A DNA stretch of 64,000 bases from a virus: IMG/VR virus record IMGVR_UViG_3300028589_000001, one strand, 5' to 3'. The number at the start of each line of letters is the position of its first letter. Positions within the stretch are counted from its first letter, which is position 1. The notes under the pieces were generated by a model. The model did no database searches and had not been told where the DNA came from. It saw nothing but the letters and a program-made list of their open reading frames with translations. Below, one piece after another: positions 47,922 through 50,552 of this stretch. The translations under genes were made by a program, and so were the position numbers.

Positions 47922-48063
47922 GTAACGTACACTCCTAGTTATTCAGGTCAAATCAACTCTATGGTTTGTGCACCGCCAAGCGCTCAATTATTGGGACCAC
48001 GAGTTGACTTGCCAGAGTAACCAGTAAACTGGGGCACTCCTGCCGACTTACATCTGTTTCCAA

Positions 48064-48390
48064 ACACTTTCATTACACAGATTCACATGCAAATCACACA
48101 GATCCGCTATTAATGTGAAAGAGCAGCTTTCGCAGCGACTTGTATCTCTCTGTTGTACTTCGCAAACCAGTTTCAACTACGGCGAAACCGGTTAACACGC
48201 TTTCGCGCGACATATTGCTTGCTTGATTCTGAAAAGGCTAACGCACTAGGCATTAGTTTCTCAAAGAACACTTTCGTGCAACTCACATCTATTGTGGCCG
48301 TCAGCCGGCCATAGACTTTCGTCATACTTGTTTCATTGCCCCTATTCCTAATCTGTCCCTCTGGCGTCTTCTTGCTTACGACAGAAAGTT
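48064..48390. repeat. cluster of short dispersed repeats (R-CTTTCG-Y)
   Basis: Direct copies at about 48064, 48126, 48199, 48269 and 48314, plus inverted copies GTGAAAG at 48113 and AGAAAGT at 48384. Confidence 0.5.
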
Positions 48391-48549
48391 AACAATACAG
48401 AGGATTAATATTAGGTTTAGGTAATGCAGTTATTCAGGCTGCATTGGACTGGAGACGATCCACCCACTGATTGGGGGTATTGCACTACCCCTTGCAGGCG
48501 ACCGGCCCGTCAAAGCTGGGCGTGTTGACGCACGCTTGTCATCTCCAGT

Positions 48550-48590
48550 CCAATACAACCTTTCGGTGTATTGGGTTTTTAGTTGTTGTC
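48550..48590 (+). terminator. orphan plus-strand intrinsic terminator (possible sRNA 3' end)
   Basis: CCAATACAacctttcggTGTATTGG followed by GTTTTTAGTTGTTG; no plus-strand protein gene nearby. Confidence 0.45.
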
Positions 48591-48832
48591 TCAACTTACT
48601 CGCCGTTGGCTTATAGTCGAACTATTGCGAGTCTCCCGACTACCATGTGGCGTGATCAAAGGCGGTGATTAGATCGTTATCCCTGACGGGGTCTCAGTGC
48701 ACGCTTCGAGCGTCCACGTGCTAATGGCCGTTGGGTATTTCCCTTTCACATGGTTTCCAGGTTTTTATGTACCTGGCGGACATACGCCCTTTAAGTGCAG
48801 GCGGTGAACTTCCCCTGTATCCGGGGACAGGA

Positions 48833-49675
48833 TTACTTCAACGGCAGCAGCGTATTCGCGCCACCGTCAGTGACCAGTGTGGTCGGCACATCACCCTTCC
48901 AGGTTTCGACCTTCTTCAGTTCGATGTACTGGGGGTTGCGGCGCATGGCTTCACCGATGGTTTCGATGGCCTGGGCCTGGCCTTCAGCACGCAGGATAGC
49001 GGCGGCTTTGTCACCTTCAGCTTCAGCACGTTGCTTGGCTGCGATGGCTACGGCCTGCGCTTCTTCGTTCTTCAGACGGTCGGTGATCTGGTTGGCTTCC
49101 ACCTTCTTGTTCAGCTGTTCGCGTACCGTATCCGGCAGCTCCAGCGAATCCAGCAGGTAGAGGTTGGTCAGGATCAGGCCGTGCTCGGCAAAGTGGGCAT
49201 GTACACGCTCGCGCACCCGCGTCAGGAATTCTTCCTGGCCGGCGCCGTAGATCGCGTCCACTTTCACTTTACTGGCTTCATTGGCGAAGGCCGTCTTCAG
49301 CACTTGGACCATGTTGGTTTCGATGATGCCGTCCAAGTCCTTGCGGTACTTGAGGAACAGCTTCGGTGCTGCGTCTTGCTCCGCGTAGGCCGTCACACCG
49401 ATGGTGGCGGTCAGGCGGGCGCCGTCGGCGTCACTGAACGAAACCTTGCCCAGGTCTTTATTCTGGTCGAAGGTCTTGAAGGTGTACAGGTTCTCGGTGA
49501 ACCCGACGATATTCCAGCCCGATTTGGCCGGCTTCATCTGGACGCCCTTGTCGCTACCTACGGTAGAAACCAGTACGCCAACCTCACCTGGCGACACTTT
49601 CTGTGGCATGCAGCCGGTTGCAGCGATGCACGCGAGGCCGACGGCCAGTGCACCAAGAATGTTACGAACGCGCAT
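48833..49675 (-). CDS. SPFH/band-7 (HflC/HflK/stomatin-like) lipoprotein
   Basis: N-terminal signal with a lipobox-like ...IAATGC; HflK/C-like core and Ala/Glu-rich coiled-coil AIAAKQRAEAEGDKAAAILRAEGQAQAIE. Confidence 0.75.
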   Translation of the reverse strand: MRVRNILGALAVGLACIAATGCMPQKVSPGEVGVLVSTVGSDKGVQMKPAKSGWNIVGFTENLYTFKTFDQNKDLGKVSFSDADGARLTATIGVTAYAEQDAAPKLFLKYRKDLDGIIETNMVQVLKTAFANEASKVKVDAIYGAGQEEFLTRVRERVHAHFAEHGLILTNLYLLDSLELPDTVREQLNKKVEANQITDRLKNEEAQAVAIAAKQRAEAEGDKAAAILRAEGQAQAIETIGEAMRRNPQYIELKKVETWKGDVPTTLVTDGGANTLLPLK

Positions 49676-49913
49676 TGCGACGTTTCCTTGTGTTGGTTTT
49701 GTTTCGGGCTTTGTGAATCATCGCCCCCATGTAATAAGTGACCAGTCCCCAAAAGAAGACTGCGCACACACCCGCAATTACCATCGAAGTGTCGTCAGCA
49801 GACAACAACTGCGGTACTGCGGAACCGAGCAGGGCGGCAGTTGCAAATCCGTAGATAAACAACAGAATCGACCAAGCTACGATCTTGTGGGGGTTCATAC
49901 CTTGTTTACGCAT
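49662..49913 (-). CDS. small 2-TM membrane protein co-encoded with SPFH (NfeD/YqiJ-like partner?)
   Basis: GGGAG SD before the internal Met; two hydrophobic helices; overlaps the SPFH gene start by 14 nt. Confidence 0.45.
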   Translation of the reverse strand: MRKQGMNPHKIVAWSILLFIYGFATAALLGSAVPQLLSADDTSMVIAGVCAVFFWGLVTYYMGAMIHKARNKTNTRKRRNARS

Positions 49914-50367
49914 GTAGCACTCCCTGTTAATAGGTTGGGTGTCTAGATACACCCTTGACCGCCACACTGATTATTTATATTGCCGTAGTGCGGTTAAAGC
50001 GGCAATTAAGGTTTGAGGGGCGCACGAAGCAGCGCTTGGTTATCCCGCGTTGGGCCTCAAAGTCTTTAGTAATTCTTTGTAGAGTTTTCCAGCAGCAACA
50101 ATCCGAGGTTTTGCCTCTTACCACTATGCCAGGTTCGAATCCTGGTTTGAGACATACAACAATTGGTCTCTTAGGGGGTTTATTTTCGAGTGGCCCCACC
50201 AGTGAACACAATATCCACTCAAGTTTAATTAGCACCGCTTTACTGCGGGGATAGCTGGGTTTCAGACAGCAGTTTGCTGCCTTGGTACTAACATCTACAC
50301 CATTCCGTGAAGTGGTCTTCCCAGGGCGATTAAACAACGCTTACCCGTGGCCTTTGGGCCATCCAAC

Positions 50368-50461
50368 CAGTATCGGTAGTTGCACTGACCGCTAACTGCG
50401 CTACATCGGGGCTATCCGTGCTCCCGGTTAGCCTTAATAGACAGTGCAACTACCGATACTG
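50368..50461. repeat. 20-bp perfect inverted repeat with 54-nt spacer
   Basis: cagtatcggtagttgcactg (50368-50387) is the exact reverse complement of cagtgcaactaccgatactg (50442-50461). Confidence 0.8.
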
Positions 50462-50552
50462 CCTCTACTGCAGGATGCTGCCGCTTTGCGGACGCTAAGC
50501 CAGTAAGTAGGAGGTAGTCGGGTTTATTTACGTGGTTGGCTCCACGGGGTGA

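Follow-up and report, generated by a model that had tools for sequence, protein, structure and literature searches.

A gp19/gp20-type SPFH lipoprotein cassette lies within a conserved, modular non-coding region with RNA-type structure in an N4-like Pseudomonas phage

The locus described here belongs to IMG/VR virus record IMGVR_UViG_3300028589_000001, a stretch of 64,000 nucleotides of viral DNA that is referred to throughout as the window. This 64-kb sequence is part of the genome of a divergent Pseudomonas phage of the N4-like group (Schitoviridae). Between positions 47922 and 50552, two overlapping minus-strand genes, one for a small transmembrane (TM) protein and the other for an SPFH lipoprotein, are bracketed by two long non-coding flanks. 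As detailed below, the pair is a mobile cassette of the type formed by gp19 and gp20 of coliphage N4, and it sits inside a conserved, modular non-coding region that keeps RNA-type structure. In order of transcription, the locus consists of the following genes, flanks and long-stem elements.

50553-51005, minus strand: 150-aa gene (phrog_7212), first in transcription order at the locus
49914-50552, minus strand: right (upstream) non-coding flank, 639 nt, GC 0.50, with modules H2, B and T3' and the 5' untranslated region (UTR) and ribosome-binding site (RBS) of the TM gene
50368-50461, minus strand: H2, a perfect 20-bp stem (CAGTATCGGTAGTTGCACTG / CAGTGCAACTACCGATACTG) enclosing a 54-nt inner domain
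49662-49913, minus strand: small TM partner gene, 83 aa, two TM helices
48833-49675, minus strand: SPFH lipoprotein gene, 280 aa, Band_7
47922-48832, minus strand: left (downstream) non-coding flank, 911 nt, GC 0.48, with modules C, H1, E and F
48436-48561, minus strand: H1, a 23-bp stem (three G-U pairs, formed on the sense strand only) enclosing an 80-nt inner domain of three hairpins
47475-47921, minus strand: 148-aa gene, 3' of the left flank
47260-47475, minus strand: 71-aa membrane protein gene, the last before the convergence with the virion RNA polymerase gene

An earlier note on this DNA, prepared from the letters alone, had proposed this gene pair with a 14-nt overlap and gaps of about 910 bp and about 585 bp on its two sides, and the open reading frame (ORF) map bears out all of these values, the larger gap being 911 bp. 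The smaller gap extends to the GTG start of the longest ORF of the TM partner (49662-49967, minus strand) and becomes 639 bp (49914-50552) when counted to the likely start, the ATG at 49913, which is preceded by AGGGAG. The two flanks are the largest ORF-free stretches of the window, with no other longer than ~380 nt, and spacers elsewhere in the window are mostly -26 to +170 nt (strand-restricted ORF calling). A third large gap of 879 nt at 2593-3471 was rejected, as this region is a DUF2201 gene. The left flank has a GC content of 0.481 and the right flank one of 0.501, compared with 0.569 for the cassette and 0.556 for the whole window, in agreement with the lower GC that had been suspected for the left flank and is now seen in the right flank too. 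Of the two 600-nt segments with the lowest GC, one falls in the left flank. The minimum (0.443) is found at 6150-6750, a segment that includes an ORF-poor gap at ~6234-6535.

The constraint on the flanks is apparent from a comparison with L038, a metagenome scaffold from ENA whose SPFH protein shares 96% identity with that of the window and whose replication and polymerase genes are ~89-90% identical. Between the two genomes, identity is 0.776 at 1214 four-fold degenerate sites and 0.91-0.98 at codon positions 1 and 2. For the left flank as a whole, the value is 0.890 (p = 4e-19 relative to the four-fold sites). The right flank is 82% identical overall, with blocks of 96-97% identity. Across both flanks, blocks 47950-48199, 48250-48549, 50100-50249 and 50350-50549, the limits of which were chosen after viewing the sliding identity profile, are 0.95-0.98 identical to L038, and short replaced segments of 26-56% identity lie between them. 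The possibility of hidden small genes was also considered and rejected. Flank ORFs of 120 aa (right flank), 54 aa and 50 aa are interrupted in L038, and all flank ORFs, including two shorter ones that are intact in L038, lack a third-position excess of substitutions; the flanks are therefore non-coding. In sum, ~900 nt of the flanks evolve like functional, non-protein-coding sequence, and purifying selection acts on the modules with a strength similar to that at codon positions 1 and 2.

The most prominent structures within these flanks are H1 and H2, which are the only perfect hairpins of at least 19 bp with arms 20-230 nt apart in the 64 kb, compared with 0-4 imperfect ones in shuffled sequences. 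The three hairpins of the H1 inner domain are GCGTG..CACGC, CCAGCTTTGACGGG and GGGGTA..TACCCC, and the H1 region (48400-48549) is 100% identical to L038. The inner domain of H2 has a stem of its own, GCTAAC/GTTAGC, around the conserved loop CGGGAGCACGGATAGCCCCGATGTAGCGCA. L008 10621-10653 matches this inner loop at 94% identity but has a changed enclosing stem, GTTGCC/GGCAAC. The base of the H2 stem, GTATCGG/CCGATAC, is the same as that in the rest of the family.

Relatives of the window were taken from IMG/VR, GenBank, ENA and Logan and are designated by phage name or L number; the slot compared among them is the interval between the homologue of the 150-aa gene and the polymerase gene. The long-stem architecture is also present in L003, L005, L007, L011, L038 (two copies), L039, L040, L041, L042 and L043. 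All share the common base GTATYGG...CCRATRC, and the inner 10-11 bp are wholly different between genomes and always paired. In a two-arm alignment of 12 sequences, 96.4% of cells are paired (a fraction somewhat inflated, since the stem instances were partly selected for pairing), compared with 67% in column shuffles and 30-43% when the arms are slid by 1-3 columns. Changes on both sides are observed in 16 of the 21 pairs, and the stem covariation score is 0.874 versus 0.265 in shuffles, with 0 of 500 shuffles reaching the observed value. By these compensatory changes beyond the controls, the H-family stem qualifies as a structured non-coding RNA. The inner domains fall into several types with compensatory hairpins of their own, for example GCGTG/CACGC, GGATG/CATCC and GTGTG/CACAC around a CGYYAA loop. 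A wider scan revealed further stems of 22-26 bp, many of which have TGYATCGGAGGTA as their base; they lie downstream of the pair in L001, L039, L041, L046 and L047, upstream of it in L001, L046 and L047, and also in L004, Littlefix and L010. Long-stem elements thereby bracket the pair at both of the locus types described below, in six or more genomes apart from the window and L038.

In the window, the 3' arm at the H1 base is shared (48423-48445) with an adjacent hairpin, AAUGCAG/CUGCAUU. Likewise, in L040-43 the long-stem 3' arm is shared with a GAUGCC/GGCAUC hairpin just before the RBS of the TM gene (~4718-4740 in L042). These shared arms at the base of the long stem suggest alternative pairings.

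The remaining modules of the two flanks are listed below.

50067-50223, minus strand: B, a conserved block of ~150 nt with small hairpins
49952-50015, minus strand: T3', a hairpin (ATTGCCG/CGGCAAT) followed by ATAAATAATCAGTG
48644-48752, minus strand: C, a conserved block with weak predicted structure, 71-75% identical to L003 8190-8297 and present in L038
48313-48448, minus strand: E, directly 3' of H1, with a hairpin of its own, AAUGCAG/CUGCAUU, that competes with the H1 base
47932-48080, minus strand: F, a long imperfect hairpin immediately 5' of the RBS of the 148-aa gene

Module B contains hairpins P2 (GAGAC/GTCTC), around the conserved loop CAAWWGTTGYATG, and P3 (CCAGG/CCTGG), followed by a conserved 3' tail, GAAAACTCTACWAAGAATT. 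It was found by nhmmer in eight genomes, with compensatory changes in both P2 and P3 (alignments A1 and A7). A T-arm-like sequence on the plus strand at ~50127-50143, GGTTCGAATCC, was rejected as a tRNA remnant, because it corresponds to hairpin P3 of B on the opposite strand, with a loop that is not the same in relatives. Module T3' recurs at 86-90% identity in L040, L041 and L042, lying there 3' of a tRNA gene (tRNA-Arg in L042), and is replaced in L038. It holds a sigma70-like promoter match (TTAACC-16-AATAAT, 49997..49970) ~55 nt upstream of the TM start, in a scan whose count was not above that of shuffles, as well as a loop, ACCGC, complementary to a downstream GCGGT. The latter is a candidate pseudoknot in which three of five pairs change on both sides in four genomes (alignment A3); both the promoter and the pseudoknot readings rest on few sequences. 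Module E forms a nested helix around the invariant 21-mer AACTTTCTGTCGTAAGCAAGA; its identity is 88% to L046 6349-6485, a segment likewise preceded by a long-stem element, and 78% to L042. Module F is 72% identical to L042 7488-7699 and to L046 6691-6843, and the promoter scan gave a sigma70-like match in it at 48015..47987.

The same modular composition extends to the relatives. Each one compared has 0.7-2 kb of non-coding DNA in the slot, made of discrete modules of 40-150 nt, the order of which is shuffled. B (50071-50216) and T3' lie upstream of the pair in the window and downstream of it in L003 and L040-43, whereas H1 lies downstream in the window and has homologues in the 5' UTR of the TM gene in L040 and L041. 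E and F are collinear with L042 and L046, and the order also differs among other genomes. Pattern scans of IMG/VR with H2, H1, B and T3' motifs returned the same few contigs plus chance matches in coding DNA, so that the modules are restricted to this clade in IMG/VR; a single metagenome scan gave four loci, three of which were duplicates. Searches with Rfam 15, including its Y RNA, GOLLD, ROOL, ribozyme and riboswitch families, gave no match at gathering score in the window and chance-level matches only at E up to 10; nothing except tRNA genes was found in 17 related loci, and nothing at E up to 5 in L047. The flanks, a clade-specific set of structured RNA modules that is absent from Rfam and includes the strongly covarying long-stem family, are the more novel part of the locus.

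Does this structure reside in RNA or in DNA? The folding z score of the left flank is -6.25 in the gene sense versus -2.8 in the antisense, and that of the right flank is ~ -3 on both strands. The earlier description of both flanks as structured thus holds mainly for the left one. Among the modules, the z scores are -7.1 for H1, -6.8 for H2, -2.75 for E, -2.7 for F, -1.5 for C and +0.6 for B. At the DNA level, the long inverted repeats of the flanks could form cruciforms or single-stranded DNA hairpins, and could provide an origin of replication or else recombination or boundary sites by which cassettes are moved. Consistent with such roles, H2 is a perfect 20-bp inverted repeat of equal stability on both strands (z -8.3 antisense versus -6.8), which leaves room for a function in DNA. 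The region is also the most AT-rich in this part of the genome, its modules are shuffled in order with cassettes bracketed by elements, and N4-type transcription uses DNA hairpins (PMC9163698). In contrast, H1 requires three G-U pairs, which would become A-C mismatches on the opposite strand, and is more stable in its sense form (z -7.1 versus -5.5). Across the family, gene-sense G-U pairs outnumber A-C mismatches by 27 to 5, a count that is partly biased, as G-U was permitted for the sense strand alone in some of the scanning. The G-U pairs favour the gene-sense RNA strand. The inner domains show hairpin covariation as well, and the known N4/LUZ7 promoter hairpins have loops of 3-4 nt, not 54-140 nt (PMC9163698). 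On balance, a role solely in DNA is judged unlikely.

The cassette itself varies among the relatives: in close relatives it is absent, relocated or replaced. The slot is without extra genes in L004, Littlefix and phCDa, and contains a TerB gene and a gene for a 67-aa membrane protein in place of the pair in L005, L008, L010 and L011 (TerB of L008: PF05099, 7.9e-13; cassette at L008 10669-11317). It holds the TM and SPFH pair in L003, L038, L040, L041, L042, L043 and L046. In Meara, L039 and L047, the pair is instead present at a second locus, adjoining a dCTP deaminase gene. Finally, at L045 4795-5834, a pair with 65% amino-acid identity lies beside a P22_Cro-like gene on an unrelated 42-kb phage contig, where long-stem elements are absent. 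The presence of the pair in this unrelated backbone shows that it has been transferred between phage families. In a neighbour-joining tree of the SPFH proteins, the two locus types are intermixed, with L003 and L041 grouping with Meara-type copies at 80-86% identity, and the window and L038 form a separate deep branch that is 65-70% identical to all others. This pattern requires several transfers or relocations. The pair is therefore an accessory, mobile cassette that has repeatedly moved between phages and between two loci. The slot itself resembles a hotspot for membrane-associated two-gene cassettes, either the TerB pair or the TM and SPFH pair.

This outcome agrees with the accessory part of the earlier proposal of an acquired accessory unit; as to acquisition from elsewhere, the GC content of the cassette equals that of the genome, so there is no compositional sign of foreign origin. 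A megablast search of the locus against GenBank phages gave no match, and a distant blastn search gave the SPFH gene of Meara only. In other genomes, the cassette copy is found directly after the homologue of the 150-aa gene. The simplest reading of the arrangement in the window is that its lineage acquired a cassette copy of its own, which would have been inserted in the middle of the RNA region, between T3' and C. With the cassette placed inside the RNA region, the two flanks would be two halves of one functional RNA region. The flanks had earlier been taken for the borders of an island, a view that gives way to that of a small-RNA/tRNA region found in all close relatives and split in two here.

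An experimental precedent is provided by phage LUZ7. The spacer between its orf69 and orf70 was identified by ONT-cappable-seq as an 'intergenic transcription hotspot' with abundant late small RNAs of <250 nt, one of which is apparently processed (Putzeys et al. 2022, PMC9163698). By annotation, the slot of the window is syntenic with this spacer: in both, a non-coding stretch follows the SSB/gp46-like block and precedes the final small genes, convergent with the virion RNA polymerase gene. The LUZ7 hotspot differs from the window in its length (~400 nt versus 1.5 kb), in the length of its closing stem (12 bp versus 20-26 bp) and in lacking the SPFH pair. Its stem (GGAGTGCTCTGG/CCAGAGCACTCC; LUZ7 is L014, positions 4938-4949 / 4994-5005) encloses a domain of ~45 nt just upstream of the orf70 RBS and is a smaller analogue. 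For N4-like phages, this hotspot is the sole experimental indication of small RNAs, and the syntenic region of the window is far larger and under selection of protein-coding strength. The unexplained LUZ7 small RNAs come from the one transcriptomic study of an N4-like Pseudomonas phage, and the window modules, located at the same site, offer RNA candidates with defined coordinates, covarying stems and no Rfam family.

Taken together, we favour, with moderate confidence, a reading in which a mobile gp19/gp20-type cassette lies within a conserved modular non-coding RNA region and the stems serve as processing or stability elements of the sense strand. As in LUZ7, transcription of the region would run in the gene sense, together with the middle genes or following them. 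Double-strand-specific RNases recognise approximately two helical turns of sequence-independent duplex, and the long stems of the window, with their length of 20-26 bp and independence of sequence, are compatible with recognition by RNase III. The stems may be substrates of such RNase III-type enzymes or, alternatively, protective end hairpins. Cleavage or end protection might then release small stable RNAs and uncouple neighbouring cistrons into independently expressed units, and the repeated modules could provide the recombination points by which cassettes such as the TM and SPFH pair or TerB are moved. The RNase III stems known from T7 early mRNA and from the flanks of 16S and 23S rRNA likewise span about two helical turns, stand between cistrons or enclose a structured RNA, and are read by shape. 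By analogy, the variable yet always-paired long stems of the H family may belong to the same kind of substrate; the base motif GTATYGG/CCRATAC has no known counterpart there.

Several observations weigh against this reading. We purely infer the involvement of RNase III. The LUZ7 region is syntenic without sequence homology to the window, and transcription was shown for LUZ7 alone. H2 folds as well in the antisense as in the sense, as described above. Modules B, C and T3' are no more stable than shuffles, and the alignments behind them contain just 4-8 sequences. No observation ties the RNA modules to the SPFH pair in function, and the pair of L045 occurs without such elements. Lastly, identity to L038 could partly reflect recent recombination instead of selection; against this last point, the same blocks are recognisable in genomes whose SPFH proteins differ by 30-35%.

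A bolder version of this reading, which we put forward only tentatively, is that the H family, B and E are undescribed structured RNAs of phages, excised from the end of the middle transcript. Such RNAs might act in trans, on host RNA processing or quality control or on the timing of phage genes, and might also form movable boundaries for cassettes (gp19/gp20-SPFH, TerB) that pass between loci and phages. The modular, shuffling non-coding architecture is comparable to that of the T4-type PeSL, in a different phage family. PeSL are repeated promoter/stem-loop motifs that flank accessory genes, and a part in the modular shuffling of these genes has been proposed for them (Arbiol et al. 2010, PMC2839356; PMC4122927). 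PeSL share with the window the placement of repeated motifs around accessory genes in plastic regions, yet consist of short promoters and terminator-like stem-loops of conserved sequence. The stems of the window are instead 20-26 bp long, vary in sequence with compensation, and enclose structured domains of 50-140 nt.

A more specific proposal is that the long-stem elements are tRNA-like or Y-RNA-like RNAs that act in trans by binding a host quality-control or repair factor such as Ro60/Rsr-PNPase or similar. YrlA and Y RNAs are 80-130 nt in length, combine a long stem with a tRNA-like domain, are in some cases encoded by phages, carry a Ro60-binding GNCGAA(N)G motif and mimics of T- and D-arms, and are located no more than 4 kb from a Ro60/TROVE gene (Chen et al. 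2014, PMC4201824). The elements of the window clade resemble them in size (90-200 nt) and in having a long closing stem with a multi-hairpin inner domain (PMC4201824). Moreover, the Meara-type upstream elements have a canonical T-arm, GGTTCGATTCC, with covarying stems, a feature that these relatives' elements share with Y RNAs (PMC4201824), and some Pseudomonas species encode Rsr/YrlA. Directly downstream of SPFH in L039, 5892-5972 and 5999-6077 are weak matches to the tRNA model (30-33 bits; ARAGORN anticodons AAA and AAT). The first of these is embedded in an extended stem of 16 bp, and thus long-stem elements may in some cases enclose tRNA-like RNAs or have arisen from them. H1 and H2 themselves do not fit this description. 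Neither contains a T-arm, the GNCGAA motif is absent (the base is GTATYGG), and no Rfam model, including those of the Y RNA families, matches the window or L047 at permissive thresholds, for which reasons membership of the YrlA/Y RNAs was rejected. A Ro60 homologue was not identified, whether adjacent to the locus or elsewhere, although no systematic Ro60/TROVE search was made. We therefore regard binding of such a factor as rather improbable.

The proteins of the cassette are better understood by comparison with known families. The SPFH protein matches Pfam Band_7 (PF01145) with 65.2 bits (cutoff 23.6) and E 9.9e-18, which places it in the SPFH/Band 7 superfamily, and it also matches phrog_200 'lipoprotein' at 1e-64; its best PDB match by sequence is prohibitin (4.8e-9). 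Its N-terminus is a predicted signal peptide, MRVRNILGALAVGLACIAATG-C22, that ends in a lipobox, as in bacterial lipoproteins. The lipobox Cys22 is invariant in 10 homologues, including N4 gp20 (alignment A5), and at least 90% conserved in 23, and the gene product is accordingly predicted to be a lipoprotein. Both the Band_7 assignment and the lipoprotein assignment had been suggested from the translation, and the profile searches and this conserved cysteine support them. In an AF2 model of moderate confidence (pLDDT 70), a beta-rich SPFH domain with strands at residues 23-98 is followed by helices at 103-163 and a single 65-residue helix at 182-246. Full-length Foldseek matches of this model are prohibitin, erlin, HflK/C, stomatin and QmcA, all cage-forming, with probability 1.0. 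The SPFH protein is probably a lipid-anchored periplasmic assembly with cage-forming SPFH architecture, acting with a two-TM partner of the inner membrane. Candidate roles are exclusion, envelope stabilisation and lysis timing.

The partner matches phrog_1130 'membrane protein' (9.6e-9) and has two predicted TM helices, a basic C-terminus and a short inter-TM loop with a conserved VPxxLxxxD-like motif; P34 and W55 are invariant in an alignment with N4 gp19 and nine relatives (A6). An NfeD-type partner, as first suggested, was rejected: no NfeD match was obtained in Pfam (E up to 0.1) or NCBIfam, and the protein has only 83 aa with two TM helices and belongs to phrog_1130. The partner and the SPFH protein are instead homologues of N4 gp19 and gp20, respectively, the latter being reached by tblastn at 1e-25. 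In coliphage N4 (EF056009, 8057-9092), as in the window, a small two-TM gene (gp19, 68 aa) overlaps the start of an SPFH lipoprotein gene of ~280 aa (gp20, 278 aa), by 8 nt versus 14 nt, and the lipobox Cys and the P and W residues of the partner are kept. The window pair therefore has the form of an N4 gp19/gp20-type module, with an overlapping small two-TM gene just upstream of the SPFH lipoprotein gene. The two pairs share just 28% amino-acid identity. That of N4 belongs to the rightward early/middle gene expression block, where it stands after RNAPII with spacers of 60-75 nt and without surrounding long-stem elements.

Bacterial SPFH-NfeD operons (QmcA-YbbJ) and HflK/C similarly encode an SPFH protein together with a small membrane partner, and the predicted fold of the window protein matches theirs. 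The differences are that the window partner lacks an NfeD domain, that its gene comes first and overlaps the next, and that the SPFH protein is anchored by a lipobox, whereas QmcA-YbbJ and HflK/C use an N-terminal TM helix or hairpin. The pair had also been thought unusual for this phage family. That view is contradicted by N4 itself and by several N4-like phages, including S6, Pokken, Paxi, PB119 and phiEaP8, and by tblastn, which finds SPFH homologues in 386 GenBank phage records of many families. The pair is thus an old, widespread phage module. A role in defence, raised as one option, found no backing in PADLOC, the models of which match neither the SPFH protein, nor its partner, nor the three neighbours. 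The role of SPFH lipoproteins in phages is still called unclear in a 2026 paper (PMC13239085). Lipoproteins of the N4 gp19/gp20 type occur in hundreds of phage genomes, and the present clade supplies natural variants of gain, loss and relocation for comparison.

Are the flanks dedicated to the expression of this cassette? They could act as cis or trans regulators, with 5' and 3' UTR structures and with module E serving as a small RNA at the lipobox codons. In L040-43, L046 and L047, a long-stem element is present 20-50 nt upstream of the TM gene, its base overlapping the RBS-adjacent hairpin, and elements of this kind bracket the pair at either locus type. Partial complementarity exists between the invariant loop of E (48373-48389, AACTTTCTGTCGTAAGCAAGA in RNA sense) and the SPFH mRNA at 49596-49612, where the lipobox residues C-M-P-Q-K-V are encoded. 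This site recurs in the L038, L042 and L046 loci as one of the five that pair best, yet longer runs are found elsewhere in the 64 kb. The pairing is no better than at such chance sites, and E was rejected as an antisense regulator of the lipobox codons. More generally, the same element family is found in relatives that do not have the pair (L004-L007, L010 and L011), and the pair of L045 does not have long-stem elements. We consequently give little credence to dedicated regulation of the cassette.

Transfer RNA genes are present in the slot of several relatives, namely tRNA-Arg-TCT in Littlefix, L003, L008 and L042, one more with an unassigned anticodon in L040, tRNA-Ile in L004, tRNA-Leu and tRNA-Met in L010 and tRNA-Leu in L011; no tRNA or tmRNA was found in the window by ARAGORN or Rfam RF00005. 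That the flanks are a decaying tRNA cluster with neutral spacer, structured only by tRNA remnants and terminators, is suggested by these genes, by the homology of window 49952-50007 to sequence just 3' of the tRNA gene in L042 (the tRNA itself being missing from the window) and by the acceptor/T-arm minihelix and other T-loop motifs of L003, but is very hard to sustain and largely refuted by the constraint test, since 47100-51100 gives no tRNA or tRNA-like match at E up to 10, the blocks are 95-98% identical to L038 versus 78% at neutral sites and are kept across genomes at 65-70% protein identity, and the stems covary strongly. The L003 minihelix (6807-6871) extends over the SPFH stop codon and is a weak tRNA-Sec match (E 0.34); two more GGTTCGAWTCC T-loop motifs lie at ~6895 and ~7090, in the 2-kb non-coding stretch downstream.

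In the surroundings of the locus, the virion RNA polymerase gene (36995-47116, plus strand) shares ~66% nucleotide identity with those of Littlefix, phCDa and 98PfluR60PP and, over half its length, ~70% with that of the LIT1/PEV2 group. The replication and middle-gene operon runs on the minus strand down from 64000, includes AAA_24/Sak4-like, SSB, gp49/66-like and RuvC-like genes, and meets the polymerase gene convergently at 47117-47259. Where the latter meets the 71-aa gene, an inverted repeat at 47236-47289 (core AAAGCCCC / GGGGCTTT) resembles a bidirectional terminator. The two genes that border the region, 50553-51005 and 47475-47921, are hypervariable relative to L038, with 63.5% and 72.7% nucleotide identity, respectively, compared with ~90% genome-wide and 93% for the cassette. 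Farther upstream, within the minus-strand block, a 478-aa ORF is present on the opposite strand (59268-60704, plus) and matches Phage_Tail_Tip (PF09327, 5.9e-8).

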